Shown here: piece by piece, positions 26,339-64,000 of the stretch
Layout: every line of letters starts with the position of its first letter
Numbering within the stretch: the first letter of the stretch is position 1
Assembly: GCF_044333485.1 (NCBI RefSeq)
Contig: NZ_JBIRRA010000007.1
Location: 235,730-299,729 of the forward strand
Reading direction: 5' to 3'
Source of the DNA: Streptomyces sp. NPDC020983
Lineage (GTDB): Bacteria > Actinomycetota > Actinomycetes > Streptomycetales > Streptomycetaceae
Length of the DNA stretch: 64,000 nucleotides
Notes under the pieces: model-generated
What the model saw: the letters and a program-made list of their open reading frames with translations, nothing else
Databases searched by the model: none
Told to the model about the DNA's origin: nothing
Made by a program: the position numbers and the translations under genes

Positions 26339-26353
26339 GCCGCCGCCGCGCGG

Positions 26354-27775: not shown

Positions 27776-27810
27776 ACCAGGGACGCACGATCCCCGAAGG
27801 AGGGCTCACC

Positions 27811-32591: not shown

Positions 32592-32612
32592 CTGCTCCTT
32601 CGTCTGCCCCGC

Positions 32613-32850: not shown

Positions 32851-32975
32851 GGCAGCCCCCTCGCCGTCCGCGTCCCCCTGCGAGCCCCATCCTCCCACCA
32901 CGCACCGCCCGCGGACCCCCGGCGGTCCGGGATGTGCCAGGGTTGCGCTCGTACACGCAACGAGCGGGAGGCTGG

Positions 32976-48500: not shown

Positions 48501-49109
48501 GACCTGCGAGACGTCCTGGCTGATCCCGCTGCCGGTGGCCTCGTATCCGGCGACGAAGGCGCTGCCGGTGTGGCCCGCGTGATCGTACGCGGCCGCCGCC
48601 CGCCCGCTGAACAGCGCGTCCTCTCCCTCGCACGCGGTGCCGAAGGCGCAGTACGACGGGAAGGCGGGCTTGGCCTGCACGCCGGTCGCCGCCAGCGTGA
48701 CGGTGGTGTTGTCCGCGGTGAAGGGCCCGCTGCCCTGCTTCCAGCGCAGCGTCAGGGCGCTGGTCCTGATCTCCCGGTAGCCGTCGGAGCTGACGCCGGT
48801 GGTGTACGCGGGCGGGGTGAAGGAACGGTTGACGGCGTTGAAGGTGGCGCCGTCCTGGAAGGCGCCGTCACCGGCGTACTCCAGCCGTATCAGCGTCGGC
48901 GTCAGCACCTCGAAGCGCGCGTTGCCGTCCGTGACCGGCACCCCCGCCGCGCCGGCCGCCGACGCTCCGCCGGCGAGGGCCACCAGCAGGGAGGCCAGGA
49001 GCCCCAGGCAGGCGGCCAGGAGCGGTCCCTTCCGCCGCGCCGCGCCGGGGCGCCTTCGCCGCGGCGGGTACGCGCGCGGGTGCGGTGGACGTGCGGAGCG
49101 AGGGCGCAC
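45540..49109 (-). CDS. Secreted glycoside hydrolase family 31 enzyme with N-terminal CBM-like domain and C-terminal tandem ricin-B lectin domains
   Basis: GH31 catalytic-region motifs are present (WNGWNWNSALFPDP, DIGSFHGG, VRWLQFGAFQP). There are three QLWGCN/QLWDCN/QLFDCN ricin QxW repeats. A signal peptide follows GTG at 49109, which has a GGGAGG RBS. Confidence 0.8.
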   Translation of the reverse strand: MRPRSARPPHPRAYPPRRRRPGAARRKGPLLAACLGLLASLLVALAGGASAAGAAGVPVTDGNARFEVLTPTLIRLEYAGDGAFQDGATFNAVNRSFTPPAYTTGVSSDGYREIRTSALTLRWKQGSGPFTADNTTVTLAATGVQAKPAFPSYCAFGTACEGEDALFSGRAAAAYDHAGHTGSAFVAGYEATGSGISQDVSQVPAAGDYRLQVRYSNAAGGTGSLSTRVNGAAGPALSLPATSSWDAWSTASATVHLAAGTNTLALVQNAGDTGRVNIDSVAVTAQNATAYPAAQTALVTTGYGAGPADTLGGWSRSLDNPRTLPVPEHPGILDRHGWYLLDDSRSALLGAGHTVTDRPSHGTSPYQDGYFFGYGQDYKQGLSDLNALTGGAALLPRSAYGVWYSRYYAYSTADYENTLLPAFRTNNVPVDWLVVDTDWKSPSQWNGWNWNSALFPDPQAFLDWTKQQGLSVAMNIHPSINGDDPKFAAANSAAGGLGVDSGNTYRFDWSSSAQLGAYLGLHQPFEKQGVREWWLDYCGGCGGSTAGDPHVAPDNLINQAYADDAAAKGLRGFSFARVGGSEQGGDDSTYALGPWSERRTSMQFTGDTPATWDMLGFEVRFTADEAAAGLSNVSHDIGSFHGGHLADDLYVRWLQFGAFQPVDRLHSDHGDRLPWNYSGAAATAAAQALRLREALVPYTYTLAHQASTTGVPIVRPMYLDYPAQEDAYRAQGEYLYGDDVLVAPITTPDDGSGNGSVTVWVPPGSWTDYFTGHTYTGPATVTATAPLGQFPVLVRGGGMMTTRTDLAANAQQPLTALTVNVAAGADGSSSLYTDAGEGTGYTSGQSATTPLSWNDASRTLTVGAQSGNWPGAPASRAYTLRLSNSAAPTAVLVDGTQVPETDWSWNPQRRTVTVTTAALPVGTAHTVALQGSATANPAAGEVVGAGGNCLDARGGSAADGTALQLWGCNHTAGQQFALQADNTLRTLGSCVTASGGGTANRTAVSLAACTGSAAQLWTHRTDGSLLNPASGRCLDVPDGTTAPGAVQLQLFDCNGTAAQLWKLPPGPLTGPGGLCADVANADPAPATPVQLWGCNSTDAQRWSAPGDGTLHALGKCLDAAGGGTASGTRVQLWDCNGTGAQAWTTRPDGTLLNPPSGRCLDDSGGLAKQGDALQLYDCNGTAAQVFRLR

Positions 49110-49496: not shown

Positions 49497-50180
49497 GTGA
49501 TGGGACACGGGCGAGCAACGGATGCCCCGCGGCTGCTGCTGGTCGAGGACGACCGCGAGCTGGGGGCCATGCTTTTCGACGTTCTGGGGGACGAGGGGTA
49601 TGCGGTCGACCTGGCGAACGACGGCCAGCGCGGTCTGCACCTCGGCCTGTCCCGGCAGTACGACGTGCTCGTCATCGACCGTCGCCTGCCGGTGCTCGAC
49701 GGCCTCGACCTGCTCGGCAGGCTGCGGTCACGCGCGGTCCGCGCCCCGGCGCTCGTGCTGACCGCGATGGGGACCGTGCGCGACCGGGTGGACGGCCTCG
49801 ACGCGGGAGCCGACGACTACCTGGTCAAGCCCTTCGTGCTGGACGAGCTGAGCGCGCGATTACGGGCGCTGTGCCGCCGCGCCGGTGACGTGGGCGACGT
49901 CCTGAAGATCGGCTCGGGCCGACTGCACGTGGGCGACCGTGAGGTCGAGCTGGCGGACGGCGCGCGGATCGCCCTGGCGGCACGGGAGTTCTCGCTGCTG
50001 TGGCTGCTGGCGGCGCACCCGGGCCTGGTCTACTCGCGCGCGGAACTGCGCAGGACGGTGTTCCGGGAGGCCCCCGCGTCGTCCATCGTCGACACCTACG
50101 TCTACTACCTGCGCCGCAAACTCGGACGGCAGGTCGTCCGCACCGTACGAGGACTGGGCTACAGCCTGGGGACCCTGTGA
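49497..50180 (+). CDS. OmpR-family two-component response regulator
   Basis: Receiver domain (LLLVEDD...VLVIDRRLP...LVLTAMG) plus a winged-helix output domain. Confidence 0.85.
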   Translation: MMGHGRATDAPRLLLVEDDRELGAMLFDVLGDEGYAVDLANDGQRGLHLGLSRQYDVLVIDRRLPVLDGLDLLGRLRSRAVRAPALVLTAMGTVRDRVDGLDAGADDYLVKPFVLDELSARLRALCRRAGDVGDVLKIGSGRLHVGDREVELADGARIALAAREFSLLWLLAAHPGLVYSRAELRRTVFREAPASSIVDTYVYYLRRKLGRQVVRTVRGLGYSLGTL

Positions 50181-51433
50181 GGACGGGCGCGGTGCCGCCC
50201 GAGCGCACGGCGGTGCGCCGGGCGCGGCTGCGGATCGCCCTGATCACGGCGGCGGTCATCACCTTGCTGGTCACCGCCGTCGGATGGGTCTGCGACACCG
50301 TCATGACGCGCGCCCAGAACGCCCAGGTGTGGCGGGAACTGCGCTTCGGTGCGGCGGTCGGCGATCTGACGAGGCCGCCGGTGTGCACCTGGCTGTTCGC
50401 CGACGGCGTGCCGCAGCTCGCGAACGCACCGGCCGGTTTCCCGCTGGCGGGGGACGTCGGCCAGGTACGCCGGACCGGCCGGGCCGTGGAACGCACCCTC
50501 CACCGCGACGGCACGGTCTACCTGGTCCGCACACAGCCGCGTGCCGGCGGCCTGGTGGTCCAGGCGGTGTTCGACATGCGCTACCAGCTGGCCGACCGCA
50601 CCCATCTGTGGTCCGCGCTCGGTGCCGCCGAGGTGGTGGGGCTGCTCGCCTCGGTGGGCGCCGGGGCACTCCTCGGGCGGGTGTCCGTGACGCCGCTGGC
50701 CGAGGCGCTCGCGCGGCAGCGCCGCTTCGTCACCGACGCCAGCCACGAACTGCGCACCCCGATCACCCAGGCCTACACCCGGGTGCAGGTGCTCTCGCGG
50801 CAGGCGGCCGCGCAGAAGCTGCCCGACGGGCACCGCGAGGGCCTGGACCGGCTCACCGGGTCGCTCGGCCGGCTCGGCGAGGTGCTCGACGACCTGCTGC
50901 TGTCGGCCAGCCTGATGGCGGGCCCGGCGCGGCAGTCGGACCACCGGCCGCTGGACCTGGCGGCCCTGGCCCGCTCCGTGGCCGCGGAGGAGTCGGAGAC
51001 GCTCGACGGCCGCGTCACCCTCCTCGTGGACGTCCCGCCCCAGCCCGTGCCGGTGAACGGCGTCGAGTCGGCGCTGCGCCGGGCCGTCGGCGAACTGCTC
51101 TCCAACGCCGCCCGCCACACCCCGCCGGGCGGCAGGATCGAGATGACGCTCGGCCGCGCGGACGGCACGGTCACGCTGACGGTCTGCGACACCGGACGCG
51201 GTTTCTCTCCCGCCGAGGCGGAGCGGCTGTTCGAGCGCTTCCACCGCGGCGGCGACGACGGCCGGTACGGGCTGGGGCTCGCCCTGCTGCGTGAGGTCGT
51301 CACCCGTCACGGCGGCACGGTCACCGCCTCCAGCCGTCCGGGGCACGGTGCCCGGTTCACCATCCGCCTGCCGGCCTGCGGCCCGCCGCTCACCCCCGGT
51401 CCGCCGCACCAGGCGACGGCAGGCCGTACGTGA
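50177..51433 (+). CDS. Two-component sensor histidine kinase
   Basis: GTGA overlap with the regulator gene. H-box FVTDASHELRTPIT. N, G1 and G2 boxes (LLSNAARHTP, VCDTGRGF, GLGLAL). Confidence 0.8.
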   Translation: MRTGAVPPERTAVRRARLRIALITAAVITLLVTAVGWVCDTVMTRAQNAQVWRELRFGAAVGDLTRPPVCTWLFADGVPQLANAPAGFPLAGDVGQVRRTGRAVERTLHRDGTVYLVRTQPRAGGLVVQAVFDMRYQLADRTHLWSALGAAEVVGLLASVGAGALLGRVSVTPLAEALARQRRFVTDASHELRTPITQAYTRVQVLSRQAAAQKLPDGHREGLDRLTGSLGRLGEVLDDLLLSASLMAGPARQSDHRPLDLAALARSVAAEESETLDGRVTLLVDVPPQPVPVNGVESALRRAVGELLSNAARHTPPGGRIEMTLGRADGTVTLTVCDTGRGFSPAEAERLFERFHRGGDDGRYGLGLALLREVVTRHGGTVTASSRPGHGARFTIRLPACGPPLTPGPPHQATAGRT

Positions 51434-52925
51434 CCACGAGCCGGGCCGCGGCGCGGACGTCCGCGTCCAGCGGGCGGTCCGGCTCGACGGCGGGTACCGC
51501 CCCGGCGAGGGCGTCCAGGAGCGCGGCGCACCGCGGCGCGGTCGGGCGGCGGGCCCCGACGTGCGCTGCCTGGCGCAGCCCCAGCGCGAGGGACCCGCAC
51601 AGCAGGTGGAGCAGCTCCGCCGCGTCGTAGGCCCGCAGGGCCGCCTGGGTGCCGAAGGGCACGACATCCTGGTTGTGGAGGTTCGTCGGCAGGCTCTGGA
51701 CACTGGCCGGCGCGGCGGCCCGCCGGATCTCCGCGACCAGCGCGGTGGTGGCCAGCTGGACGCCCTGCAGCCCGTGCTGCGCCCCCGGGGTGGCCGTCAG
51801 CATCGGCGGCAGGCCCCCGTTGCGGACGGGGTCGACCAGCAGGTCGAGCTGACGCTCGGCCAGGTTGCCCAGCTGGGCCGTGACCAGGGCGAGCAGGTCC
51901 GCCGCGAACGCCGCGGGCTGCCCGAAGAAGTTGCCGCCGTGCACCACCTTCCCCCGCTCCGGGCCGTCCGGGAGGAACAGCGGGTTGTCGCTGACGCCGT
52001 CGAGATCCGCCGCGACCACGCCGTCGATGTGGCGCAGCGCGTCCTCCGCGGCGCCGAGCAGCTGCGGGGCGCAGCGGATGCTGTAGGGCTCCTGCAGCGG
52101 CCTGCTGCCGGAGGGGGCGCCGCCGCCGAGCATCTCCCGCATCCGGACGCCGACGTCCCGCGCGCCGGGATGGCCGTAGGCGGCCAGCAGGTCCGCGTCG
52201 AGGAAGGCGGTGTCGCAGCCGAGGAGGTCGGCGAGCAGCGCGGTCAGGTCGGCGAGCGCCCGGTGGGCGTCGCGGACGGCGTCGCGCGCGAGGGCGGTGG
52301 CCGCGGTGGTGACCGGGGTGCCGTTCACCAGGGCGAGCGCGTCACGGCCGTCCAGGGTCAGGGGGCGCAGACCCGCCGCGGCCAGGGCGTCGGCGGCCGG
52401 CAGGCGGCGGCCGTCGAGGTAGGCGTGGCCGCGTCCGCGGAGGGCCTGCGTGGCGTAGGCGAGCGGGATGAGGTCGCCGCTCGCGCCGACCGATCCGTAA
52501 CGGGGCACCGCCGGTGAGAAGGTCGTCGCGAACATCGCGGCAAGGCGCTCGACGACCTCCTCGGAGACCCCGGACAGCCCGCGGGCGAGCGTGCGGGCGC
52601 GCAGCAGCAGGGCCGCGCGGGTGATCTCCTGCGGGAGGTCGGGCCCCTGGCCGGCGCCGAGGTGTGCCAGGGTGTTGTCGCACTGGTCGGCCTCGGAAGC
52701 GCGTCCGGCGTATCCGGCGAGTGCGCCGAAACCGGTGGTGGTCCCGTAGATCCGCGGCCCGGCGCCGTCCTCGCCCTGCCGGAGGGCGCGGAAGAGGCGT
52801 CTGCCGCGCCCGACGCGCGCCCGGACCTCCTCGTCGACGACGACGGTCAGCGGTGCGGCGGCCCGGCGCAGCGCGCCGGCGCCGAGGGGGCCGGTGAGAC
52901 GGACGGTCTGCGACGTGGTGGACAC
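51390..52925 (-). CDS. MIO-dependent aromatic amino-acid ammonia-lyase/aminomutase family enzyme (HAL/PAL/TAL/TAM superfamily)
   Basis: MIO-forming tripeptide in GSVGASGDLIPLAY. N-terminal YGTTTGFGALA. A-H-L at the selectivity-switch region. Confidence 0.8.
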   Translation of the reverse strand: MSTTSQTVRLTGPLGAGALRRAAAPLTVVVDEEVRARVGRGRRLFRALRQGEDGAGPRIYGTTTGFGALAGYAGRASEADQCDNTLAHLGAGQGPDLPQEITRAALLLRARTLARGLSGVSEEVVERLAAMFATTFSPAVPRYGSVGASGDLIPLAYATQALRGRGHAYLDGRRLPAADALAAAGLRPLTLDGRDALALVNGTPVTTAATALARDAVRDAHRALADLTALLADLLGCDTAFLDADLLAAYGHPGARDVGVRMREMLGGGAPSGSRPLQEPYSIRCAPQLLGAAEDALRHIDGVVAADLDGVSDNPLFLPDGPERGKVVHGGNFFGQPAAFAADLLALVTAQLGNLAERQLDLLVDPVRNGGLPPMLTATPGAQHGLQGVQLATTALVAEIRRAAAPASVQSLPTNLHNQDVVPFGTQAALRAYDAAELLHLLCGSLALGLRQAAHVGARRPTAPRCAALLDALAGAVPAVEPDRPLDADVRAAARLVVTYGLPSPGAADRG

Positions 52926-52969
52926 GTACGGGAACGTAGGCGGGCAATCTCAGAGCGCTCTGAAATCCC

Positions 52970-54562
52970 GTGGATAGCTTCCGCTCCATGACGCACGACT
53001 ACGTGATCATCGGAGCGGGCCCGGCGGGCCTGCAGCTTGCGGCCCTCATGGAACGTGACGGCGCCGACTACGTCGTCCTCGAGCGCGGCGCGGGCCCCGG
53101 CACCTTCTTCCGGCGCTTTCCGCGCCACCGCCGCCTCATCTCCAACAACAAGGTGCACACCGGGTACGAGGATCCGGAGCTGCGGCTGCGGATGGACTGG
53201 AACTCCCTGCTGAGCGACGACCCCGAGCTGCTGTTCACCCGGTACAGCCCGAGGTACTTCCCGCCGGCCGACGAGATGGTGCGCTACCTGACGGACTTCG
53301 CCGCCCGGACAGGGGTCCGGGCGCGGTACGGCACCGACGTGGCGCAGGTCTCCCGGGACGGTGCCGGCTTCGCCGTCACCGACCGCGCCGGGGAGGTGTG
53401 GCGGGCCCGGCGCCTGGTCGTCGCCACCGGCGTGTCCCTGCCCTACCTCCCACCGGTCCCGGGTATCGAACTGGCCGAACGCTACGACACCTTCGACCCG
53501 GCCCCGGAGTCCTTCACCGACCAGCGGGTCCTCGTCGTCGGCCGCGGCAACTCCGCCTTCGAGACCGCCGACAGCCTCATGGAGCACGCCGCGGTCATCC
53601 ACGTCGTGGGCCCCGGGTCGCTGCGGCTGGCCTGGCGGTCGCACTACGTGGGCCACCTGCGCGCGGTGAACAACAACTTCCTGGACAGCTACCAGCTGAA
53701 GGCGCAGAACGCGCTGCTGGACGGCCGGGTCCTCGCCGTACGCCGCGAGGCCGACGGCTTCCGCGTGCCGGTGGCCTTCGACCGGGTCGGCGGGGCGGTC
53801 AAGGAGCTCCGCTACGACCGGGTGATCGTCGCGACGGGCTTCCGGTTCGACGCCTCCTTCTTCGACGACTCCTGCGCGCCGGAGCTCGTCGTCGACGACC
53901 GCTTCCCGGCCATCACCCCCGTCGGCGAGTCGGTGAACGTCCCCGGGCTGTACTTCGCCGGGACGATCATGCAGGGGCACGACTTCAAGAAGGCGACGAC
54001 CGGATTCATCCACGGCTTCCGCTACACCGTCCGCGCCCTGCACCGGGCGATACGCCGGCGCCACCACGGCGAGCCCTGGCCGCAGACCGCCCTCGGCACG
54101 TCCACCGAGCGGGCCGTCGAGACGGTCATCGCCCGCGTCAACCGCTCCTCCGCGCTGTGGCAGCAGTTCGGCGTCCTCGGGGACGTGCTCCTCCTCGGCC
54201 CGGACGGCACCCTGCGCCACGTCGAGGAGGTGCCGGTCGCCCACGTGCCGGACGCCGTGCGCGCCGGGGACTTCGGGGCGGTGGACGCCCACGCCGTCGT
54301 CACCCTCGAATACGGGGCCGGCCACGACGAGGTGGATCCCTTCGACGTGTCGGCGGGCCGCAGCTCCCGGCCGGACGCCACCGGGCCGGACGGCCGTTAC
54401 CTGCACCCGGTCGTCCGCTGGTATCGCGACGGCGCGTTCGTCGCCGAGCACCACCTCACGGAGAATCTGGAGAACGCCTGGGACAGCGAGGAGGGCCACA
54501 GGGCGCCGCTGCGCGCGTTCCTCGCGGCGCACACGAGCCAGGCCGCCCCGGTGACGCCGTGA
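52970..54562 (+). CDS. FAD/NAD(P)-binding oxidoreductase (flavin-monooxygenase-like), paralogue A
   Basis: FAD motif DYVIIGAGPAGL and NAD(P) motif VLVVGRGNSAFETAD. About 520 aa. An alternative ATG is at 52988. Confidence 0.8.
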   Translation: MDSFRSMTHDYVIIGAGPAGLQLAALMERDGADYVVLERGAGPGTFFRRFPRHRRLISNNKVHTGYEDPELRLRMDWNSLLSDDPELLFTRYSPRYFPPADEMVRYLTDFAARTGVRARYGTDVAQVSRDGAGFAVTDRAGEVWRARRLVVATGVSLPYLPPVPGIELAERYDTFDPAPESFTDQRVLVVGRGNSAFETADSLMEHAAVIHVVGPGSLRLAWRSHYVGHLRAVNNNFLDSYQLKAQNALLDGRVLAVRREADGFRVPVAFDRVGGAVKELRYDRVIVATGFRFDASFFDDSCAPELVVDDRFPAITPVGESVNVPGLYFAGTIMQGHDFKKATTGFIHGFRYTVRALHRAIRRRHHGEPWPQTALGTSTERAVETVIARVNRSSALWQQFGVLGDVLLLGPDGTLRHVEEVPVAHVPDAVRAGDFGAVDAHAVVTLEYGAGHDEVDPFDVSAGRSSRPDATGPDGRYLHPVVRWYRDGAFVAEHHLTENLENAWDSEEGHRAPLRAFLAAHTSQAAPVTP

Positions 54563-55629
54563 CGCTGCGGGCGCTGCGCGAGGCCGCGCGGGAGGTTCTG
54601 GACCCCGTCCACTACGACTACGTGGCCGGCGGCGCGGGCGAGGAGCGCGTCCTCGCCGCCAACGAGCGCGCTTTCGACCGCTACGCGCTGTTGCCGCGCG
54701 TGCTGCGCGGCAACGAGGCGCGGGACACCTCCGTCCCGCTCCCGGGCGCCCGGCGGGCGTCGCCGGTCGTCGTCGCCCCCACGGCCTTCCACCGCCTGCT
54801 GCACCCGGACGGCGAACGGGCCACCGCACGCGCCGCCGCGGCCGAGGGCGCGGTCCTGGTGACCGGTGCGGCGGCCACGACCGCGGTCGCCGACGTCGTC
54901 CGCGCGGCCCGCGGCGCGGCGGCCGACCCGGCGGTGTGGTTCCAGCTGTACCTGCACCCCCGCCCCGAGGTCACGGCCGCGCTCGTACGGCGGGCCGAGG
55001 ACGCCGGCTGCACGGCCCTGGTCGTCACCGTGGACTCGCCGGTCCTCGGCCGGCACACCCGGGACCTGCGCAACGGCTTCACCGACCTGCCGCCCGGATA
55101 CGCGGCCGAGAACATGCGCGGCCTGCCCGGCGGCCCGCCCGGCGCCCTCACCGACATCCCCATGTCGCCCGCGGCCACCTGGCGCGACCTCGGCGGGGTC
55201 CTGGGCGCGACGGCGCTTCCCGTGGTCGTCAAGGGCGTCCTGCACCCGGCGGACGCGGCGGTGGCCGCCGCCGAGGGCGCCGCCGCGGTGGTCGTCTCCA
55301 ACCACGGCGGCCGCCAGTGCGACGCCGTCCCGGCGGCCGTGGACTGCCTGCCCGCCGTCGTCGACGCGGTCGCGGGCCGCGTCCCGGTGCTGCTCGACGG
55401 CGGGGTGCGCCGGGGCAGCGACGTCGCCGTCGCCCTCGCGCTGGGGGCGGCGGCCGTCGGCGTGGGGCGCCCGGTGGCGTGGGGCCTGGCCGCGGACGGG
55501 GAGCAGGGCGTCCGGCAGGTGCTGGCGACCCTGCGCGACGATTTCGACCACACGCTCGCCCTGTGCGGAGGGAGCCGCACCGCGGACCTGACGCGGGACA
55601 TGGTCGTCCGCAGGGACGCGCCGTGGTGA
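54559..55629 (+). CDS. FMN-dependent alpha-hydroxy-acid oxidase/dehydrogenase (lactate/mandelate/4-hydroxymandelate oxidase family)
   Basis: GTGA overlap with the upstream gene. SNHGGRQ motif (VVSNHGGRQCDAV) and the TIM-barrel FMN site. Confidence 0.8.
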   Translation: MTLRALREAAREVLDPVHYDYVAGGAGEERVLAANERAFDRYALLPRVLRGNEARDTSVPLPGARRASPVVVAPTAFHRLLHPDGERATARAAAAEGAVLVTGAAATTAVADVVRAARGAAADPAVWFQLYLHPRPEVTAALVRRAEDAGCTALVVTVDSPVLGRHTRDLRNGFTDLPPGYAAENMRGLPGGPPGALTDIPMSPAATWRDLGGVLGATALPVVVKGVLHPADAAVAAAEGAAAVVVSNHGGRQCDAVPAAVDCLPAVVDAVAGRVPVLLDGGVRRGSDVAVALALGAAAVGVGRPVAWGLAADGEQGVRQVLATLRDDFDHTLALCGGSRTADLTRDMVVRRDAPW

Positions 55630-56996
55630 GCCGCGGCACCGCGCCGGACGGCACCTGGTGGTTCCCGCGCGCCGTCGTGGCGCTGCGCGGAGCGATCTTC
55701 GAGAAGGTCAACGGGGACCGGGCCGTGACCCTCCCCGGCGCCACCCACGGACCGGAGGTGTTCGAACGGGTCTACGCCCATCCCGCCGCGGTGGGGCGGA
55801 GCGCGGGGGCGGGCCTGTCGGACCTGTTCTGGTACTGGCTCTCGCCGGGCCCCGAGGTCCACCAGGAGCACCTGGAGCCCGGGGAGCGCTACGAGGACGT
55901 GGCCGCGGCGACCCGGCGCATCCTGGCCGGGAGCTCCGCGGCGCACGAGGCGGCCGCGGCCCGCGCCGTCGCACGCGTCCTGGACGAGCTGCCCGGACAC
56001 CGTGTCAGCCTGGTGCGGCTGCGGGACCTGGTGATGCCCGCATGGGCGGAGTTCTCCTACGAGCTGGTGTTCAGGGAGCCGTGCCCCGCCCGGGCCAGGG
56101 AACTGATCACCGCCCACGCGGGCGACGTCATCGACTCGCTGAAGTGCACCGCGCTGCGCCACCCGCGCCGCCGCGCCCGCCTGACGGCGTATCTGCACCA
56201 CCGCGTCGCCGCCGGTGACGTGCCCCACCGGCTGCCGGCCTCGCTCTCGCTGCCCGAGCAGGTGCACTACCTCCAGGGCACCTTCTTCAACACCGCCGTC
56301 GTGCAGCTCTCGGAGGCCACCGCCCACCTGCTGCTCGCCCTCGCCCACCACCCCGGCGTCCAGCGGCGGCTGGCGGCCGACCCGGCGGACGCCACGGGCT
56401 TCGCACACGTCCTCGACGAGACGATGCGGCTCTTCCCGCTGTTCGGCATCGCGCACCGGATCACCAGGGGCGAGATCCCGCTCGACGAGGACACCGTGCT
56501 CCCGGCGGGCACCGTGGTGTGCTTCAGCTACCCCGACTACCACGCCACGGGCTACGAGCGCCCGGCCGAGTTCGACCCCGGCCGCTGGACCTCGCTGTCG
56601 CCGCGGGACGCCCACCACATCCCCTTCGGCATGGCGGCGAACCGCCCCTGCCCGGCATGGCGGCTGTCGCCGCTGGTGCTGCGCGCCGCCACCCGGGAGG
56701 TCCTCGGCCGCTTCCGGCTGGAGTCCACCGCCTCGCACACCCGCTCCATCCCGAACCGGGCCCCGTGCCTGCTGGTCCCGCACACCGCCGCGCCGGCGCC
56801 GCGCCGTCTGGCGGCGCTGCGCGGATACGTCAGGCTGCGCGACCGGGCCGAGGACGTCACCCGCGGGCTGACGCAACTGGCGCTCGGCACGGTCATGGTG
56901 CTGCACGCCCGCCGGCTGAGGCCGGCCGCACGCCACTTCGACCACGCCGAGGCCGGGGGCTGCCCGGCCTCCCGACCTGAAGGAGAGCCCCGATGA
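55626..56996 (+). CDS. Cytochrome P450 with atypical Cys-loop
   Basis: ExxR (ETMRLFP) and PERF-like FDPGRW motifs. A heme Cys-loop variant FGMAANRPCPAW. The GTG start overlaps the upstream stop. Confidence 0.7.
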   Translation: MSRGTAPDGTWWFPRAVVALRGAIFEKVNGDRAVTLPGATHGPEVFERVYAHPAAVGRSAGAGLSDLFWYWLSPGPEVHQEHLEPGERYEDVAAATRRILAGSSAAHEAAAARAVARVLDELPGHRVSLVRLRDLVMPAWAEFSYELVFREPCPARARELITAHAGDVIDSLKCTALRHPRRRARLTAYLHHRVAAGDVPHRLPASLSLPEQVHYLQGTFFNTAVVQLSEATAHLLLALAHHPGVQRRLAADPADATGFAHVLDETMRLFPLFGIAHRITRGEIPLDEDTVLPAGTVVCFSYPDYHATGYERPAEFDPGRWTSLSPRDAHHIPFGMAANRPCPAWRLSPLVLRAATREVLGRFRLESTASHTRSIPNRAPCLLVPHTAAPAPRRLAALRGYVRLRDRAEDVTRGLTQLALGTVMVLHARRLRPAARHFDHAEAGGCPASRPEGEPR

Positions 56997-58258
56997 GTCC
57001 CACGGAGCTCGGCCCCGCGTTCTTCCTCGCCGCCGTGGCGATCCTGGCCGCGTGCCGGCTGGTCAGCCGGGTGCTCGGCCGGTTCGGTCAGCCGCCCGTC
57101 GTGGGCGAGATGCTGGCCGGCGTGCTGCTCGGCCCCTCGCTGCTCGGCGCGCTGCTCCCCGGCGTCGAGAACCACCTGTTCCCGCACGAACTGCGGCCGG
57201 TCCTCTACGTCGCCGGGCAGATCGGGCTCGTCGCGTTCATGTTCCACGTCGGCTGGGACTTCCGGGTGGACCGGCTGCGGTCGGTCGCCAGGGCCGCCGC
57301 GATGGTCTCCGCCACGGGCGTGCTCGTCCCCGTGGGCCTCGGCGTCGCCCTCGTGGTGGCCGCGGGGGAGCGGACGGGCATCCTGGCCGGCAACGTGTCC
57401 ATGACGGTGTCGGCCCTCTTCGTCGGGGTCGCACTCGCCGTCACCGCCTTCCCGATGCTCGCACGGATCATCGACGAGCGCGGTCTGGCCGGCACCCGGC
57501 ACGGGTCGCTCTCGCTGGGAGCCGGCGCGGTGGACGACGTGGTCGCGTGGGTGCTCCTGGCGGGCGTGCTCAGCTTGGCCCACGGATCGGCCGGGCTGGT
57601 CTCCAAGGCCGTTCTCGGGGGGCTCGGGCTGGTGCTGGTCATGGCCGTGGTGCTGCGCACGCAGGGCCGCATCGCACGGCTGGCCGAGCGGACGGCGCCG
57701 GACCACCTGTTCTGGATCGTGGCCGGTGCGCTCTTCGTCGTGGCCTGGTACGCCGACGTCATCGGCCTGTACGCGGTCTTCGGCGCCTTCAGCCTGGGCG
57801 TGGTGTTCCCGCGGTCGCCGCGGCTGGACCGGACGGTGCGGACGCTCAACCCGGTGGGCACGCTCTTCGTGCCGCTGTTCTTCACCTACTCGGGGCTCAA
57901 CACGGACTTCACACTGCTGGGCTCGGGCCGGGTGCTGCTGTTCACGGCCGCCTGCGTGCTGTTCGCCGTGGCCGGGAAGTTCGGTGCCTGCTGGTTCGCC
58001 GCACGCGCCGCCGGCGAGCCGAACAGGGTGGCGCTGCGGGTCGGCGCGCTGATGAACGCACGGGGCCTGATGCAGCTGGTGGCGCTCAACCTGGGGCTGG
58101 AGGCGGGAATCGTGACCCGGGCGATGTTCAGCGCCCTGATCGTGGTCGCCCTCGTCACCACCACCATGACGACTCCGCTGCTCACACTGATCGAGCGGCG
58201 CGACCGGGCGCCGCGCGAGTCCGGCCTGCTCCCCGTCGCGGCGGCCGAGGTCGGCTGA
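56993..58258 (+). CDS. Cation:proton antiporter (CPA2 / Kef-type Na+/H+ exchanger family)
   Basis: A 421-aa protein with about 12 TM segments. ATGA-coupled to the P450 gene. Confidence 0.85.
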   Translation: MSPTELGPAFFLAAVAILAACRLVSRVLGRFGQPPVVGEMLAGVLLGPSLLGALLPGVENHLFPHELRPVLYVAGQIGLVAFMFHVGWDFRVDRLRSVARAAAMVSATGVLVPVGLGVALVVAAGERTGILAGNVSMTVSALFVGVALAVTAFPMLARIIDERGLAGTRHGSLSLGAGAVDDVVAWVLLAGVLSLAHGSAGLVSKAVLGGLGLVLVMAVVLRTQGRIARLAERTAPDHLFWIVAGALFVVAWYADVIGLYAVFGAFSLGVVFPRSPRLDRTVRTLNPVGTLFVPLFFTYSGLNTDFTLLGSGRVLLFTAACVLFAVAGKFGACWFAARAAGEPNRVALRVGALMNARGLMQLVALNLGLEAGIVTRAMFSALIVVALVTTTMTTPLLTLIERRDRAPRESGLLPVAAAEVG

Positions 58259-58306
58259 GCCGGCGTGTCCCCGGTGCCGTGCGCCGGGGACACGCGCACG
58301 CGCCCG

Positions 58307-59788
58307 TCAGACGTGCCCGCGCGCCAGGTCGGCCAGCCGCCGCTTGTCCGGCTTGCCCGCCGCGGTGAGCGGCACCTCGGTGATCGGTGTCAGGCGGACC
58401 GGCGCGCAGGCCTCGCCCAGGTGCGCGGTCACCAGCGCGCGCATCTCCTCCAGGCTGGGGAGCGCGCCCGCCGCGGGCACGGCGAAGACGTGGACGGCCT
58501 CGCCGGTGCGGTCGTCCGGGACGGCGACGGCGTACGCCTCGGCCACCGCCGGGTGCCCGGCGAGCAGCCGCTCGACGGGGCCGGTGTAGTGGACGTTGGC
58601 GTTCACGATGACGATGTCGCGGGTGCGGCCCGTGAGCCACAGCCGGCCCCGGTCGTCGAGGTGCCCCAGGTCGCGGGTGCGTACCCAGCCGTCGACGAAC
58701 ACCTCGGCGGTGAGGGCCGGATCGTCCCAGTAGCCGCAGCCCTGCCCGGGGGTCCGTACGAAGATCTCGCCGTCCGTGCCCGCCGGGACGGGGCGTCCGC
58801 CGGGATCCCTGATCTCCAGGTCGACGGGCGGTACGCCCAGCGAGCCGGGCGCTTCCCCCGGGGTGGCCATGGAGATCATGCCGGTCTCCGTCTGGCCGTA
58901 CCCGTGGAAGACGACGGGACCGAGCAGCTCCGCCGCCTCGCGCAGCAGACCCGGCGGCGGCGGGGACCCGGACACCATCAGCGCGCGCAGACCGCCGAGG
59001 CCGGAGGGCGACCTCCGCGCCTGCGCCACGAGTTCCGCGAGCCGGGCCACGGTGGTCACGCTCGCGCTGGCCCGGTGGCGGACGAGGGCGGCGGGGAGGC
59101 CCGCGGCCTCGGCGGTGACGAGCACTCCGCCCGCGGCCAGCGTGAGGAGCCCGTACTCCATCACCACCTGGCTCGCCAGGGTGCCGAGGACGAGGAAGCG
59201 GTCCAGGCGCGTGGCGAGCTCGCGGACCGCCGGGGGCCAGGCGTCCGGCCGCAGTGCCCAGCCCGCCGTCATGGCCGCGTAGGTCTGGGCGCACGCCTTG
59301 GGCTCGCCGGTGCTGCCGCTGGTGTGGATCAGCCGGGCGACGTCCTGCGGGCGGGCGGTGACGCGCGGGCGCACCGCGGGGTCCGGCGCGGACAGCAGGT
59401 CGGCCAGGGCGAGAGCGGGTACGGGCCCGAGCACGTCCGCGGCGCCGGGCCGGTCGGTGACCGTGCAGACGACGCCGGAGGCGAGCCGGTGCTCCTGGCG
59501 CGGCGTCAGGCCCTGCCGGATCCCGACGACGCGCGCGCCCACGACGTGGGCGGCGACGACCGCCGCGAACTGGCCGGGCCCGGCGCCGAGCAGCATCGCC
59601 ACACCGTCGCCCGGTCCCACGCCGTGCCCGCGCAGCCCGGCGGCGGCGCGCCGTACCGAGGCCAGGAGCCGGCTGCCGGAGACCGCCTCGCCGGCGTGCT
59701 CGAAGACGGTTCGTCCCCCGGCGTCGGCGAGCAGGTCCAGTACGGCCCCCGGGAACTGCTCGCCGACACCGGGGGGCTGCTCAGCCAA
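58307..59788 (-). CDS. Adenylate-forming enzyme (AMP-binding acyl/aryl-CoA ligase or free-standing adenylation domain)
   Basis: A3 motif HTSGSTGEPK, A5 YGQTE, and A10 lysine (GKPDKRRL). Confidence 0.85.
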   Translation of the reverse strand: MAEQPPGVGEQFPGAVLDLLADAGGRTVFEHAGEAVSGSRLLASVRRAAAGLRGHGVGPGDGVAMLLGAGPGQFAAVVAAHVVGARVVGIRQGLTPRQEHRLASGVVCTVTDRPGAADVLGPVPALALADLLSAPDPAVRPRVTARPQDVARLIHTSGSTGEPKACAQTYAAMTAGWALRPDAWPPAVRELATRLDRFLVLGTLASQVVMEYGLLTLAAGGVLVTAEAAGLPAALVRHRASASVTTVARLAELVAQARRSPSGLGGLRALMVSGSPPPPGLLREAAELLGPVVFHGYGQTETGMISMATPGEAPGSLGVPPVDLEIRDPGGRPVPAGTDGEIFVRTPGQGCGYWDDPALTAEVFVDGWVRTRDLGHLDDRGRLWLTGRTRDIVIVNANVHYTGPVERLLAGHPAVAEAYAVAVPDDRTGEAVHVFAVPAAGALPSLEEMRALVTAHLGEACAPVRLTPITEVPLTAAGKPDKRRLADLARGHV

Positions 59789-61322
59789 GGCACGCCCTCA
59801 CGAAAGCGGCGAGCGGCCGGCGGTGGACGGCGGGGAGGTCCCAGTCGTTCTCCAGGTTCTCCGCCATGTGGTGGGTGCCGTCGAGGACACCGTCGCGGTA
59901 GTGGCGCACGACGGGGTGGAGGTAGGTGGACTCGCCCGCGTGCTCCGCGTCGTTCTCCGCGACCCGCGGGACGGTGATGTCGAACGGGTCGTGGGCGTCG
60001 TGCCCGGCTCCGTACTCCAGGTCGACGACGAACCGGTGCTCCGCCGGGCCGAGACCGCCGTCGCCGACGTAGCCGAGCGGGACCTCCTCCTGGTAGGCGG
60101 CTTCACCGCCGTTCACACTGACGGCGTCGCCGAGGAAGCCGAACTGCTGCCACAGCCCGGACGAGCGGTTGACCCGCTCCACGAGGGCGTCGGCGATCGC
60201 GTCCGGCGCCGCGGCGAACCGTACGGCGGGCCAGGGCGTCCCGTGGTGGCGGGCGGCGAGGATGCGGTGCAGGGCGCGCGCCCCGTAGCGGTAGCCGTGG
60301 ATGAAGCCGTTGGTGCCCCGCTTGAAGTCGAGCTGCTGCGTCAGCGTCCCGGCGAAGTACAGGCCCGGCACGTTCACCGACTCGTAGGCGGGGGTCTGTT
60401 CCGGGAAGCGGTCGTTGATCACGAGCGCGGGACGGCAGGTCGCGTCGAAGGGGCGGGCGTCGAAGCGGAATCCGGCGCACAGCACGACCCGGTCGTAGCG
60501 CAGTTCGCGCAGCCCCTCCACCGTCCGGGCGTAGCGGAACATCACCCGCAGGCCCCCGTCGGGGGCCTTCTCGATACTTTCCACCGTGCCGTCCAGGACG
60601 GCGTTCTGCGACTTGAGCTGGTAGGTGTCCAGGAAGTTGTTGTTCACCGCGCGCAGGTGGCCGACGAAGTGGGTCTGCCAGGCCAGCCTGACGGAGTGCG
60701 GGCCGGCGACGTGGATCACCGCGGCCTTCGCGACGAGGGAGTCGGCGGTCTCGAACGCGGAGTTGCCCTTGCCGAGGACCAGCACCCGCTGGTCGGTGAA
60801 GGAGGCCGGATCGGTGTCGAACGCGTCGTAGCGCTCCGCGAGTTCGATCCCGGGGATGTCCGGCACGTTGAGCCGGGACAGCCCGCTCGCCACGACGATC
60901 CGTCGCGCGTCCCACGTCCGGCCGTTCCGGTCGAGGACGGTGAAGCCGTCGTCCGTACGGGAGATCCGGACGGCCTCCGTCCCGTACTCGACGGCGGCGC
61001 CGGTGTGCCGTGCGAAGTCGCGCAGGTAGCGCACGTAGTCGTCGGCGGCGGGGAAGTAGTCCTCGGTGTACCGGCCGAACAGCAGCGGCGGTTCGCTGAT
61101 CAGCGAATTCCAGTCCATCCGCAGGTTGCGTTCCGCGTCCGGGGACCCGGTGTGCACCTTGTTCACCGATATCAGTTGGCGGTGCCTGGGGAACACCGTG
61201 AAGAACGTCCCCGCCGCGGTTCCGCGTTCCAGGACGGCGTAGTCGCGCCCGTCGCGCTCCAGCAGGGCGGCGAGCTGAAGTCCGGCCGGCCCGGCTCCGA
61301 TGATGAGGTAGTCGCGCAGCAT
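59781..61322 (-). CDS. FAD/NAD(P)-binding oxidoreductase, paralogue B (inverted copy of 52970-54562)
   Basis: About 65-70 percent identical over its full length to paralogue A (DYLIIGAGPAGLQLAALLERDG..., VLVLGKGNSAFETADSL). ATG at 61320-61322. Confidence 0.8.
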   Translation of the reverse strand: MLRDYLIIGAGPAGLQLAALLERDGRDYAVLERGTAAGTFFTVFPRHRQLISVNKVHTGSPDAERNLRMDWNSLISEPPLLFGRYTEDYFPAADDYVRYLRDFARHTGAAVEYGTEAVRISRTDDGFTVLDRNGRTWDARRIVVASGLSRLNVPDIPGIELAERYDAFDTDPASFTDQRVLVLGKGNSAFETADSLVAKAAVIHVAGPHSVRLAWQTHFVGHLRAVNNNFLDTYQLKSQNAVLDGTVESIEKAPDGGLRVMFRYARTVEGLRELRYDRVVLCAGFRFDARPFDATCRPALVINDRFPEQTPAYESVNVPGLYFAGTLTQQLDFKRGTNGFIHGYRYGARALHRILAARHHGTPWPAVRFAAAPDAIADALVERVNRSSGLWQQFGFLGDAVSVNGGEAAYQEEVPLGYVGDGGLGPAEHRFVVDLEYGAGHDAHDPFDITVPRVAENDAEHAGESTYLHPVVRHYRDGVLDGTHHMAENLENDWDLPAVHRRPLAAFVRACLG

Positions 61323-61595
61323 GGGGCCGGACGCTACCGGCGCGACATCAGAAGCCTCTGAGATTCCTGCGGGGGGCTCCCGCCCGGCCTGCGGGCGACG
61401 CGCGGGAGCGGTGGCCGGTGGTGGGTGAGAACGCCTGCCGCCGGAGGGTGCCGGTCGCGGCGGCCGTCCGGCGGACCCGTACACCGTACGCGTCCCCGTG
61501 CCGGGCACGCGTCCGCCGGGGCCCGGGACGCCTGCCGGGCACGCGGGCGGATCCGGCATCCACCCCTGCCGGGCCCGCCCGTACGCCCTGGCCCG

Positions 61596-62636
61596 TCAGC
61601 CGTTGGGGAGGATGACCGCGCGGCCGTTGATGCTGCCCTCGTGCAGCCGCTCGTACGCGCGCGGCGCCTCGTCCAGGGAGAAGGTCTCGGTGTGCACGGA
61701 GACGGCTCCGTCGCGGGCGAGGGCCAGCACTTCCTGGAGTTCGGCACGGGAGCCCCAGTAGGGAGCGCTGACGCAGACCTCGAACGGCAGCACCCCGAAG
61801 CCGACGGGCAGCGTGCCGCCGCCGATGCCGACCAGGGACACCTCGGCCTCGACCCCGGCCACCGCACCGGCGATCCGCACGGTGGGTGCGGCGCCGACGA
61901 AGTCGAAGACGGCCTGGGCACCGAGGCCGCCGGTCAGCTCGCGCACCGCGGCGGGCGCGTCGTCGTCGGAGAGCACCGCGGCGTGGGCCCCGACCGTGCG
62001 GGCGAGCGCGAGCTTGTCCTCGCTGACGTCGAGGGCGACGACCCGGGCCGGGCTCAGCGCCCGCAGCAGCTGGATCGCGGTGTGCCCGAGGCCGCCGGCG
62101 CCGATGACGACCGCGGTGGAGCCCGGCACCAGCTTGGGCAGCGCACGCTTGACGGCGTGGTAGGGGGTCAGGCCCGCGTCCGTGAGCGGGACGGCCGCCA
62201 CCGGGTCGAGGCCGTCGAGGGGCACGAGGTGGCGCGGGTCGTCGACGAGCAGGTACTCGGCGATGGCCCCGGGCGCGCCCAGGCCGGGCGGGCGGATGCC
62301 CAGCTCGTCGGCACGCAGGCAGTAGTTCTCCTTGCCCTCCGCGCACTTGGCGCAGCGGCCGCAGCCCCAGGGCCCGTAGACGGCGACGGCGTCGCCCTCG
62401 CTGACCCCGGTCGTGCCGGGTCCGAGCGCGGCGACGGTGCCGACGCCCTCGTGGCCGAGGGTGAGCGGCAGCGGGTACGGGAAGCTGTCCGCGGGCCAGC
62501 TCATGACGGCGATGTCGCTGTGGCACACGCCCGCGGCGGTCACCTTCAGCAGCACCTGGCCGGGGCCGGGCTCGGGGTCGGGAGCGGTCACCACCTCGGG
62601 AGCGGCGCCGACGGTGCGGTACTGGAGTGCTTTCAC
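61596..62636 (-). CDS. Zinc-dependent medium-chain alcohol dehydrogenase
   Basis: Zn ligands GVCHSD...GHEGVG and the structural-Zn CGRCAKC motif. Rossmann GAGGLG. GTG at 62636 with AGGAGG 6 nt upstream. Confidence 0.85.
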   Translation of the reverse strand: MKALQYRTVGAAPEVVTAPDPEPGPGQVLLKVTAAGVCHSDIAVMSWPADSFPYPLPLTLGHEGVGTVAALGPGTTGVSEGDAVAVYGPWGCGRCAKCAEGKENYCLRADELGIRPPGLGAPGAIAEYLLVDDPRHLVPLDGLDPVAAVPLTDAGLTPYHAVKRALPKLVPGSTAVVIGAGGLGHTAIQLLRALSPARVVALDVSEDKLALARTVGAHAAVLSDDDAPAAVRELTGGLGAQAVFDFVGAAPTVRIAGAVAGVEAEVSLVGIGGGTLPVGFGVLPFEVCVSAPYWGSRAELQEVLALARDGAVSVHTETFSLDEAPRAYERLHEGSINGRAVILPNG

Positions 62637-63016
62637 GGTGGTCCTCCTGTGCGGGGGAGTCGGACGGCGGTGCAGGCGCCGTCGACGGGGCGGCAGCCGC
62701 CGGTGGCGAAGGTGCCGTCGCCGAGCAGGAAGGCAATCGGCCCGACGGCCTTCCCGGACCGGCCCGGCCGCCCCGCCGGGCGCAGGACGGCGAGCACGGC
62801 ACGGGGCTGCCCGTCCATGCTGCGCAGCAGCGGTGCCCCGGCGAAGCCGGGACCGGCCGCGTTGCCCCGGACGCCCCGGGCGGAGTATTCGGCGGCGGCC
62901 GTTCCGGTCAGTCCGGCGGCCTACCCGGCGGACGGCGGCGGTCCGCCGACGCTCCGGCCCCGCCGCTGCCGTGACGCTCCGCGTCGTGCCGGAGCCGCCG
63001 CGCGGGCGCGAGCCGT

Positions 63017-63859
63017 TCAGCCGGGCAGGGCGTCCCGCTCGCACCCGGGACCGGCGGTCTCCTCGCCGGCGGGCGCGGGCGCGTCACCCGGGGCGCGCAG
63101 CTCCACGCAGCACCTGCCCGGGTGGGGCGCGAGGACGGCGGCCACGCCGGCCGCTTCGAGACCGTCGAGCATCCCTGCGAGGAAGGCGTGGTTGAGGCGG
63201 CAGACCAGATCCGCCGAGCGGGCCGCGAGCTGGTGGAACGGGCAGTTCAGCAACCGGATGCAGGTGGGTGCGTGCCGCTCGGGCTCGAAGCCGTGCCGCG
63301 TGAGCAGCGGTTCGCCGGCGGTGAGGGACCGCTCGGGGCCGAGGCGGCCGGGCCGGACCCGCTCGCGCTCGGCGGCGCCGACCGCCCTGCCGTGCTCCCG
63401 GGCGGTGCGCAGCGCCGCCGCGCGGGCGTCCTCGCCGGGCTGCTGGGCCAGGACGGCGTCGAGGAGGATCCCCGCCATGACGTCGGGGCGGCGTTCGGGG
63501 ATGCTGACGCGGATGTCGGTGCCGGCCGGCTGGTAGACCTTCGGTCTGCGGCCGACCCGGCGGGCGCCGCCCGGGTTGCCGTACGAGGCGTGCAGCAGGC
63601 CGGCGGCGACGAGCTTGTCGAGGTGGAAGGCGGCGAGTTTCGCGGAGATCCCCGCCTCGGCGGCAGCCTCCTCGCGGGTGACGGGGCGCCGGGCGCGGCG
63701 GGCGAAGGCGTACATCCGGCGGCGCTGCTCGTCGGCGAGTACCGCCACCGCTGCGACCGGGTCGTCATCCGGCGGTGCGGGAGAAGCGGGGGGAGTGGCC
63801 ACCTCCTCACCATAACGCCGACGTCCGTGGCCGTAACCTTCCGCGCACCGGATGGACAT
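63017..63859 (-). CDS. Helix-turn-helix transcriptional regulator (ArsR-like winged HTH N-domain plus C-terminal Cys-containing domain)
   Basis: HTH LADEQRRRMYAFARRARRPVTREEAAAEAGISAKLAAFHLDKL. Start uncertain: ATG at 63859 or GTG at 63802. Confidence 0.55.
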   Translation of the reverse strand: MSIRCAEGYGHGRRRYGEEVATPPASPAPPDDDPVAAVAVLADEQRRRMYAFARRARRPVTREEAAAEAGISAKLAAFHLDKLVAAGLLHASYGNPGGARRVGRRPKVYQPAGTDIRVSIPERRPDVMAGILLDAVLAQQPGEDARAAALRTAREHGRAVGAAERERVRPGRLGPERSLTAGEPLLTRHGFEPERHAPTCIRLLNCPFHQLAARSADLVCRLNHAFLAGMLDGLEAAGVAAVLAPHPGRCCVELRAPGDAPAPAGEETAGPGCERDALPG

Positions 63860-63927
63860 GGGCTGCTTGACCGTCACGGCGAATAAGACCAATACTCGTT
63901 GGCGAAACAACTGCGAGGAGGTCCGCC

Positions 63928-64000
63928 GTGACGAGTGCGCCGCACTGCCGAGCCCAACGGCCCGCCACCGTGCCGGCCCGCGATGCCGCCGAGGACGCGG
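63928..64000 (+). CDS. 5' fragment of an unidentified CDS divergent from the HTH regulator
   Basis: GTG at 63928 preceded by AGGAGG. Runs to the window end. Too short to classify. Confidence 0.3.
   Translation, partial: MTSAPHCRAQRPATVPARDAAEDA

Follow-up and report, generated by a model that had tools for sequence, protein, structure and literature searches.

A co-inherited twelve-kilobase cassette with a predicted tyrosine ammonia-lyase, two flavoproteins and a rare cytochrome P450 in Streptomyces and other filamentous actinomycetes

Pathways that begin with a tyrosine or phenylalanine lyase form a limited part of bacterial specialised metabolism that has been well mapped. In Saccharothrix espanaensis, the saccharomicin enzymes Sam8, a tyrosine ammonia-lyase (TAL), and Sam5, which carries out the subsequent flavin-dependent oxidation of p-coumarate, provide an acid that ends in an amide. 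In Rhodobacter sphaeroides, another TAL (RsTAL) is paired with an adenylate-forming p-coumaroyl-coenzyme A (CoA) ligase in the chromophore supply of photoactive yellow protein (PYP). In the present study, we analysed a stretch of 64,000 nucleotides from Streptomyces sp. NPDC020983 (contig NZ_JBIRRA010000007.1, positions 235,730 to 299,729 of the forward strand; hereafter the window, numbered from its first nucleotide). In this window, a gene for a 4-methylideneimidazole-5-one (MIO)-dependent aromatic amino acid lyase lies among genes for two flavoproteins (designated FMO1 and FMO2), a flavin mononucleotide (FMN)-dependent oxidase, a cytochrome P450, an antiporter of the CPA2 family and an adenylate-forming ligase of the ANL superfamily. 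The resulting cassette is real, bounded and widespread. Its enzymes belong to known superfamilies, combined in a way that is new, and include flavoproteins of a new architecture and a P450 from a rare clade.

First, the genes form a co-conserved unit. Homologous loci were gathered with the P450 alone, one genome per species, and all proteins of the window were compared with the resulting 66 loci using tblastn. The response regulator, histidine kinase, lyase, FMO1, FMN oxidase, P450, ligase and FMO2 were all present in at least 53 of the 66 loci, and the cluster proposed in an earlier sequence-only reading of this DNA is thereby supported by a neighbourhood comparison. The full set was observed mostly in Streptomyces, and also in Saccharothrix, Actinosynnema and Actinophytocola, where one long operon is found, with the lyase on the minus strand followed by FMO2, ligase, FMO1, oxidase, P450 and CPA2 antiporter. 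The immediate flanks were unrelated from locus to locus, the biggest common family occurring in 3 of 51 left and 6 of 53 right flanks, and the boundaries of the unit are therefore sharp, at 49497 and approximately 61363. The functional unit is window 49497-61363, narrower than first proposed, and the grouping of its genes is far beyond chance. It comprises nine genes in approximately 12 kb, namely a two-component system, the lyase, an operon of FMO1, oxidase, P450 and transporter (operon 1) and an operon of FMO2 and ligase (operon 2). A Zn alcohol dehydrogenase gene and a putative helix-turn-helix (HTH) gene, both formerly counted as members, were essentially never conserved across the loci and are thus neighbours. 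The two-component system does lie directly before the other genes of the cassette, at 49497-51433, as had been described; it belongs inside the unit rather than outside it, since it is co-inherited, the histidine kinase being co-conserved with the cassette and the response regulator being conserved at 67-92% identity in loci that carry both of the modules described below.

Genes were located using third-position G+C (GC3) and frame plots in the window, which has a G+C content of approximately 75%, and were then translated and assigned domains using Pfam. All genes listed in the sequence-only reading were recovered in this way, the HTH gene with a sub-threshold match. The OmpR-family response regulator (49497-50180, plus strand; Response_reg and Trans_reg_C) and the sensor histidine kinase (50177-51433, plus strand; HisKA and HATPase_c) are joined by a GTGA overlap of stop and start codons. 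Further overlaps, read directly in the sequence and as described before, connect the four genes of operon 1: GTGA for FMO1/oxidase, GTGA for oxidase/P450 and ATGA for P450/CPA2. The start of the ligase gene overlaps the stop of the FMO2 gene on the other strand of the cassette. The kinase and lyase genes are convergent, their 3' ends overlapping by 44 bp (51390-51433), and transcription of either gene may interfere with that of the other.

Second, the cassette is built as a fusion of two autonomous modules and a two-component system, since each module also occurs alone; what had been described as one cluster is a single co-inherited unit of composite origin. Module A consists of the lyase, a flavoprotein and a ligase, and module B of a ligase, a flavoprotein, the FMN oxidase, the P450 and the CPA2 antiporter. 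Module A alone was observed in Nonomuraea and Micromonospora, with 72% identity for the lyase, 74% for the FMO2 orthologue and 61% for the ligase, and with the divergent spacer of approximately 63 bp that is discussed below. On its sequence, including 74% identity with the Nonomuraea protein, FMO2 is assigned as the orthologue of the flavoprotein in this stand-alone lyase-flavoprotein-ligase module. Module B alone was observed in Saccharopolyspora, one Streptomyces, Stackebrandtia and Crossiella, with a ligase of 42-47% identity placed divergently from FMO1, FMN oxidase, P450 and CPA2, and without lyase, FMO2 or the palindrome of the window cassette. Among these module-B-only loci, a FAD_binding_3 gene of the aromatic-hydroxylase type is adjacent in L051 and L071 and approximately 5 kb away in L072, and a small repressor gene stands beside it in L051 and L071. 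A mandelate-type route was also considered from other neighbours in L051 (mandelate-racemase-like, aldehyde dehydrogenase and Fe alcohol dehydrogenase genes) and was rejected, as these neighbours are not conserved in L055 and L058. The Nonomuraea and Micromonospora module A loci carry, within 10 kb, genes for an extracytoplasmic function (ECF) sigma factor with DUF6596 and for a YCII protein (L067 5637-8410; L069/L070 1-834), a finding that may be coincidental or may point to another regulator for the palindrome.

The distribution of the cassette resembles that of accessory genes. In the complete or near-complete chromosome records (L011, L022, L035, L050 and L062), the cassette always lay within the outer approximately 11% of the record. 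The closest relative, Streptomyces sp. NRRL F-5123 (L001), with protein identities of approximately 90%, has only remnants of the lyase and FMO2, of 75 and 79 amino acids (L001 7070-7294 and 14171-14407), and keeps the remaining cassette genes and both palindromes. This pattern looks like a recent decay of module A, and the loss of lyase and FMO2 in so close a relative fits the behaviour of accessory genes. The cassette has probably been passed between genomes as an accessory element of filamentous actinomycetes.

Third, the lyase (51390-52925, minus strand) is predicted to act on tyrosine. Its sequence agrees at 100% identity with a protein recorded for Streptomyces sp. NPDC020983. Its membership of the MIO family is clear (PF00221, 427 bits against a cut-off of 27.3), and both GSVGASGDL, with the MIO-forming Ala-Ser-Gly triad, and NTLAHLGAGQG, which holds a His-Leu pair, are invariant in 57 of 57 cluster-linked orthologues. 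The best match in the Protein Data Bank (PDB) is RsTAL (2o6y, 235 bits), and in a residue-by-residue alignment with this structure His88-Leu89 falls on the tyrosine-selectivity pair His89-Leu90; Tyr60, Tyr300 and Arg303 of RsTAL and the motifs YSxRCAPQ and NxxNQ are also kept. The histidine ammonia-lyase (HutH) models scored well below their cut-offs (TIGR01225, 345 against 539 bits; NF006871, 354 against 524), as did tyrosine 2,3-aminomutase (TIGR03832, 258 against 501). At the selectivity position, ordinary Streptomyces HutH has Ser-His (...RSH) and Sam8-type TALs have Tyr-His (PMC4640377). Because of the His-Leu pair and the RsTAL match, the lyase is predicted to be a tyrosine-specific ammonia-lyase, and is not expected to be open to Tyr, Phe and His alike, as had been allowed; an aminomutase activity may also be compatible with the sequence. 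The naringenin TAL of S. clavuligerus was rejected as a counterpart, being another lyase type with Tyr at the switch (PMC4640377).

These features place the locus beside the described systems without equating it with any of them. RsTAL is the closest solved relative of the lyase, with an identical His-Leu pair and catalytic residues, and the pairing of lyase and adenylate-forming ligase recalls the PYP system; however, the cassette has no PYP gene, its ligase does not have the His of the A4 motif of CoA ligases, and there are two flavoproteins, an FMN oxidase, a P450 and a transporter in addition. The combination of an actinomycete TAL with flavin enzymes recalls Sam8/Sam5, whereas the selectivity pairs differ (His-Leu here, Tyr-His in Sam8-type TALs; PMC4640377), and the cassette has neither an HpaB-type (Sam5) hydroxylase domain by Pfam nor a glycosyltransferase or other saccharomicin genes. 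With no HmaS, HpgT or HpaB-type domain among the cassette proteins, the hydroxyphenylglycine and Sam5/Sam8 caffeate routes do not fit, in agreement with the sequence-only reading.

The ligase (58307-59788, minus strand; AMP-binding and AMP-binding_C) has the ANL motifs HTSGSTGEPK and GKPDKR, and it had been described as an acyl-adenylate ligase. The ANL assignment stands, and by sequence the enzyme resembles amide-bond synthetases more closely than CoA ligases. Its best PDB matches are 6sq8 (188 bits) and 6h1b (185 bits), which we take to be the amide-bond synthetase McbA; the next chains, at approximately 137-158 bits, were deposited as fatty-acyl-CoA synthases, with a feruloyl-CoA synthetase chain at 137. 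At the position of the A4-motif His that characterises aryl- and acyl-CoA ligases, such as 4-chlorobenzoate-CoA ligase, the ligases of the window and of module A have Gln, and those of module B have Ala. This His has a role in thioester-forming ligases, and McbA has Asp201 in its place (PMC6282839). McbA/NovL-type amide bond synthetases are thus the closest solved relatives, with the A4 His missing in both; identity with McbA is moderate (roughly 35%, counted by eye from the alignment rather than computed), the cassette has no amine-supplying enzyme, and amide formation by this ligase would be hypothetical.

FMO1 (52988-54562, plus strand; Pyr_redox_3, 163 bits) and FMO2 (59781-61319, minus strand; Pyr_redox_3, 145 bits) are paralogues with 60% identity. 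FMO1 is a two-Rossmann FAD/NAD(P)H flavoprotein of the YpdA/small-FMO type, extended at the C-terminus by approximately 180 amino acids that matched nothing. The two GxGxxG/A dinucleotide motifs of class B flavin monooxygenases (GAGPAG and GRGNSA) and their ATG motif (ATGF) are invariant. The FMO-identifying motif FxGxxxHxxxY/F was absent, the stretch ERYDTFDPAPESFTDQ before the second Rossmann motif having no His, and the flavoproteins may therefore be oxygenases or reductases. Their structural neighbours include SMFMO and DesB, of which SsDesB is an N-hydroxylating monooxygenase. YpdA needs a Cys within the first GxGxxG. Identity with YpdA-type bacillithiol disulfide reductases (TIGR04018) was rejected, as the first motif, GAGPAG, has no Cys and the score of 84 bits is far below the cut-off of 340.

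The FMN-dependent alpha-hydroxy-acid oxidase/dehydrogenase (54559-55629, plus strand; PF01070, 373 bits) has the catalytic motifs SNHGGRQ, VVKGV and FQLY. Its PDB matches include glycolate oxidase (271 bits), 4-hydroxymandelate oxidase (5zzp, 228 bits) and single-domain lactate oxidase chains (approximately 203 bits), and the models for L-lactate oxidase (TIGR02708, 227 against 645) and MftD (TIGR03966, 208 against 471) were not reached; judged by sequence, the enzyme seems about equally far from glycolate, 4-hydroxymandelate and lactate oxidases. A comparison with Hmo, the 4-hydroxymandelate oxidase of the glycopeptide hydroxyphenylglycine route, is suggested by the common FMN_dh family and by the Hmo substrate, a tyrosine-derived 2-hydroxy acid, but glycolate oxidase outscores Hmo and the partners HmaS and HpgT are absent by Pfam.

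The P450 (55626-56996, plus strand; PF00067, 42.8 bits against a cut-off of 22.8) is matched by Pfam in its C-terminal half only. The ExxR motif (E265, R268) and the proximal ligand Cys342 are kept without exception across 28 homologues, and the predicted model, with a predicted local distance difference test (pLDDT) score of 78, has a P450 fold (Foldseek probability 1.0) distant from solved P450s (template modelling (TM) scores of 0.5-0.62, 13-19% identity). With 412 relatives at E<=1e-3 among 1.84 billion representative proteins, this P450 belongs to a rare clade. It carries a helical C-terminal extension of approximately 70 amino acids (residues ~390-456, window 56790-56996), an addition to the canonical P450 fold with a nearly invariant Cys-Pro (C446-P447) at its end. 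In the I helix of CYP152 peroxygenases, Arg-Pro replaces the acid-alcohol pair. CYP152 structures were among the higher TM scores, at 13-15% identity; the I helix here, GTFFNTAVVQ, has Asn-Thr rather than Arg-Pro, and a CYP152 identity was rejected and is retained solely as a remote functional idea. The cassette has no redox partner gene for the P450.

The slot after the P450 gene could be read in 65 loci and is occupied by a transporter gene in 63 of them, namely a CPA2 antiporter of lineage a in 32, a CPA2 antiporter of lineage b in 12 and a major facilitator superfamily (MFS) transporter in 19; it is empty in 2. In the window, the slot contains a CPA2-family cation/proton antiporter with the membrane domain only (56993-58258, plus strand; Na_H_Exchanger, 184 bits), which does not reach the subfamily model TIGR00932 (130 against 238 bits). 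The twin-Asp motif xxDDxxAW, which we take to be the ion site of CPA2 antiporters, is invariant in 46 of 46 CPA2 proteins and places the protein in this family together with the Na_H_Exchanger domain. Since an MFS transporter fills the slot in 19 loci, a transporter is part of the design rather than an antiporter specifically; the embedded antiporter noted earlier is indeed present and is not essential. The cargo may be the product, a precursor, ammonium or another cation.

Fourth, the cassette carries a regulatory signature of its own. Three start codons in the window are preceded, at a distance of 31-35 nt, by the conserved palindrome TCTCAGA-N4-TCTGAGA. Operator 1 (52947-52966, no strand), the perfect 20-bp palindrome ATCTCAGAGCGCTCTGAAAT, occurs only once in the window (0 occurrences expected by chance). 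It is placed within the 62-bp spacer between the divergent lyase and FMO1 genes, its centre being approximately 31-32 nt from either start codon (GTG for the lyase, ATG for FMO1). The length (approximately 63 bp) and sequence of this spacer are conserved across Streptomyces, Pseudonocardiales and the module-A-only Nonomuraea and Micromonospora. Operator 2 (61346-61363, no strand), the copy TCTCAGAGGCTTCTGATG on the minus strand, lies approximately 35 nt upstream of the FMO2 ATG and is followed by TAGCGT, 8 nt before the ATG. The palindrome occurs exactly twice in 48 Streptomyces loci and once in the Pseudonocardiales with a single operon, and loci with module B alone do not contain it. Across loci, its centre is 29-36 nt from the FMO1 and FMO2 starts and 29-41 nt from the lyase start, except for two loci at 56 nt. 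With this near-fixed spacing upstream of three starts, the lyase, operon 1 and operon 2 would form one regulon. TANNNT is a Streptomyces promoter box, and such boxes stand 7 nt before the start codons of lyase and FMO1. A scan for Escherichia coli-type promoters and terminators found none at the divergent region or the convergent junction; from the sequence and the TANNNT boxes, the two transcripts are probably leaderless and start from back-to-back promoters, with the palindrome over both -35 positions. In two Streptomyces loci, L036 (~14272) and L066 (~11705), FMO2 is missing and the second palindrome lies 23-45 nt upstream of the ligase; the operator can apparently drive the ligase gene even where FMO2 is absent. 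The kinase has two predicted membrane segments flanking an external loop of approximately 110 amino acids, the response regulator has below-threshold NCBIfam matches of the RppA, PmrA and CopR types, and the two-component system matches no named system above cut-off. This co-inherited OmpR-type system is likely to be the input to the regulon.

No described pathway was found to match this gene set. Every match in the NCBIfam scan of the cassette proteins was under its cut-off, the database names of these proteins are all generic, and a full-text literature search turned up no description of the set, in agreement with the sequence-only reading, which named no matching pathway. Herein, we propose at about even odds (a probability of roughly 0.5) that the cassette encodes an accessory pathway from L-tyrosine to a hydroxycinnamate-type small molecule that is both oxidised and carboxyl-activated. 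In the first step, which is the one supported by the sequence, the MIO enzyme would act as a TAL and release trans-p-coumarate and ammonium. In the second step, FMO2 and the ANL ligase, the ancestral partners of the lyase, would oxygenate or reduce the acid and adenylate it, and the ligase, which like McbA does not have the thioester-type A4 His, might pass the acid to an amine or thiol. In the third step, FMO1, the FMN oxidase and the rare P450 of module B would add side-chain or ring oxidations; the FMN oxidase requires a 2-hydroxy acid, probably made by the P450 or a flavoprotein, and would yield a 2-oxo acid and H2O2. In the fourth step, the CPA2 or MFS transporter in the observed slot would move product, substrate or counter-ion. 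All of this could be governed by one symmetric operator at the -35 position of three probably leaderless promoters, bound by a protein that we infer.

Several points weigh against this proposal. The specific sequence evidence concerns the first step alone, the steps after it being of our own inference. The cassette has no classical scaffold enzyme (polyketide synthase, nonribosomal peptide synthetase or prenyltransferase). Catabolic loci, too, typically contain FMN hydroxy-acid oxidases and two-component systems with an external sensor. The flavoproteins may act as reductases rather than oxygenases, since their best structural match is a disulfide reductase, although the active-site Cys of that enzyme is absent here. 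Module B exists without a lyase, so tyrosine cannot be its sole substrate source. The invariant twin-Asp motif suggests that CPA2 moves inorganic cations rather than a metabolite. Loci with module A only have the palindrome but no two-component system next to it, for which reason the palindrome-binding protein has to be postulated, and OmpR-type regulators more often bind direct repeats.

The proposal may be taken further, and only tentatively, to an undescribed tyrosine pathway, widespread in filamentous actinomycetes, with a symmetric operator and a dedicated two-component system, that yields a new class of hydroxycinnamate-derived signalling or protective metabolites. Its two modules would then be, equally tentatively, a TAL with a flavoprotein of new architecture and an amide-synthetase-like ligase, and a flavoprotein with an H2O2-forming oxidase, an orphan P450 and an antiporter; the FMN oxidase might supply H2O2 to the P450, as the cassette has no redox partner gene.

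The main rival, which we regard as rather unlikely, is a catabolic or detoxifying cassette for plant-derived aromatic acids, such as hydroxycinnamates, 4-hydroxyphenyllactate or mandelates. The kinase would sense the external substrate, the transporter would import it or balance charge, the ligase would activate the acid, the flavoproteins, FMN oxidase and P450 would degrade the side chain, and the lyase would feed tyrosine into the route. The lyase-free module B of Saccharopolyspora, Stackebrandtia, Crossiella and one Streptomyces is consistent with this scheme, as are the FAD_binding_3 hydroxylase genes close to three of these loci (two with the small repressor gene), the extracytoplasmic loop of the kinase and the standing of FMN hydroxy-acid oxidases as classic catabolic enzymes. 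However, Pfam found no ring-cleavage dioxygenase, hydratase/lyase, thiolase or beta-oxidation gene in the cassette, the ligase does not have the A4 His of CoA ligases, and a cassette that is patchily distributed, sits in chromosome arms and decays is more in keeping with specialised metabolism. In addition, biosynthetic contexts are known for TAL-type enzymes that have the His-Leu switch.

A nitrogen-oxide or N-N bond route is very improbable. It would resemble the aspartate-nitrosuccinate pathway with a diazotase, in which CreE, CreD and CreM are a flavoprotein monooxygenase, a lyase and an ANL enzyme, the three enzyme classes of module A (PMC11705231). The flavoprotein would N-oxygenate the amino acid, the MIO lyase would eliminate the oxidised nitrogen and leave p-coumarate, and the ANL enzyme would use the nitrogen species and ATP; the atypical ligase is compatible with such chemistry, and so is the fact that the structural relatives of the flavoprotein include N-hydroxylating monooxygenases, for example SsDesB. 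The likeness is one of description, at the level of the enzyme-class trio rather than of a sequence link, and the lyase is of the MIO type here and fumarase-like there. Plain ammonia elimination is the simplest expectation for a lyase that keeps the full TAL active site and MIO triad, no CreE/FzmM-type or diazotase-named chain was among the PDB matches listed for flavoprotein and ligase, and genes that would form an arylamine substrate are absent from the cassette. Finally, ordinary histidine utilisation by a HutH that is a chance neighbour of unrelated oxidoreductase genes is excluded, for although some databases name the orthologues histidine ammonia-lyase and HutH is the top NCBIfam match, the score is far under its cut-off, the selectivity pair is His-Leu rather than the Ser-His of Streptomyces HutH (PMC4640377), no hutU or hutI gene was found by Pfam among the neighbouring genes, and the gene set is co-inherited with sharp boundaries and a common operator; the sequence-only reading had itself named a known histidine locus as the finding that would overturn it.

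Outside the unit, the Zn alcohol dehydrogenase (61596-62630, minus strand; Pfam) and the putative HTH protein (63017-63859, minus strand; HTH_20, 24.6 bits, below the cut-off of 27) have open frames that run far upstream of their likely starts (62631-63083 and 63860-64000, respectively) with Arg/Pro-rich translations, and their start codons are uncertain within these extensions. Upstream, the cassette adjoins a gene for a secreted-type glycosidase of 1189 amino acids (45540-49109, minus strand) with GH31, CBM6/35 and two ricin-B lectin domains, which was not kept beside the cassette in other genomes by tblastn across the loci. The upstream genes of the window, including this glycosidase, an M15 peptidase, an aldo-keto reductase and others, were set aside as unrelated, the glycosidase being the one compared across loci. 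Local dips in G+C content were also observed at 26001-28000 (0.70) and 32001-34000 (0.715), against approximately 0.75, and the genes in these dips have unusually low first-position G+C (0.61 at 26354-27532) and mirror open reading frames on the opposite strand.

The cassette is one that standard cluster-detection rules would probably overlook. It offers genome mining a sharply bounded 12-kb target of clonable size in dozens of cultured species, with a clean regulatory handle in the form of a 20-bp palindrome over three promoters. It also brings together three poorly understood enzyme types, namely a flavoprotein with an unmatched C-terminal domain, a rare P450 and a ligase without the thioester-type His. 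Identification of the product would give functions to the large groups of proteins annotated as "NAD(P)-binding domain-containing protein" and "cytochrome P450".

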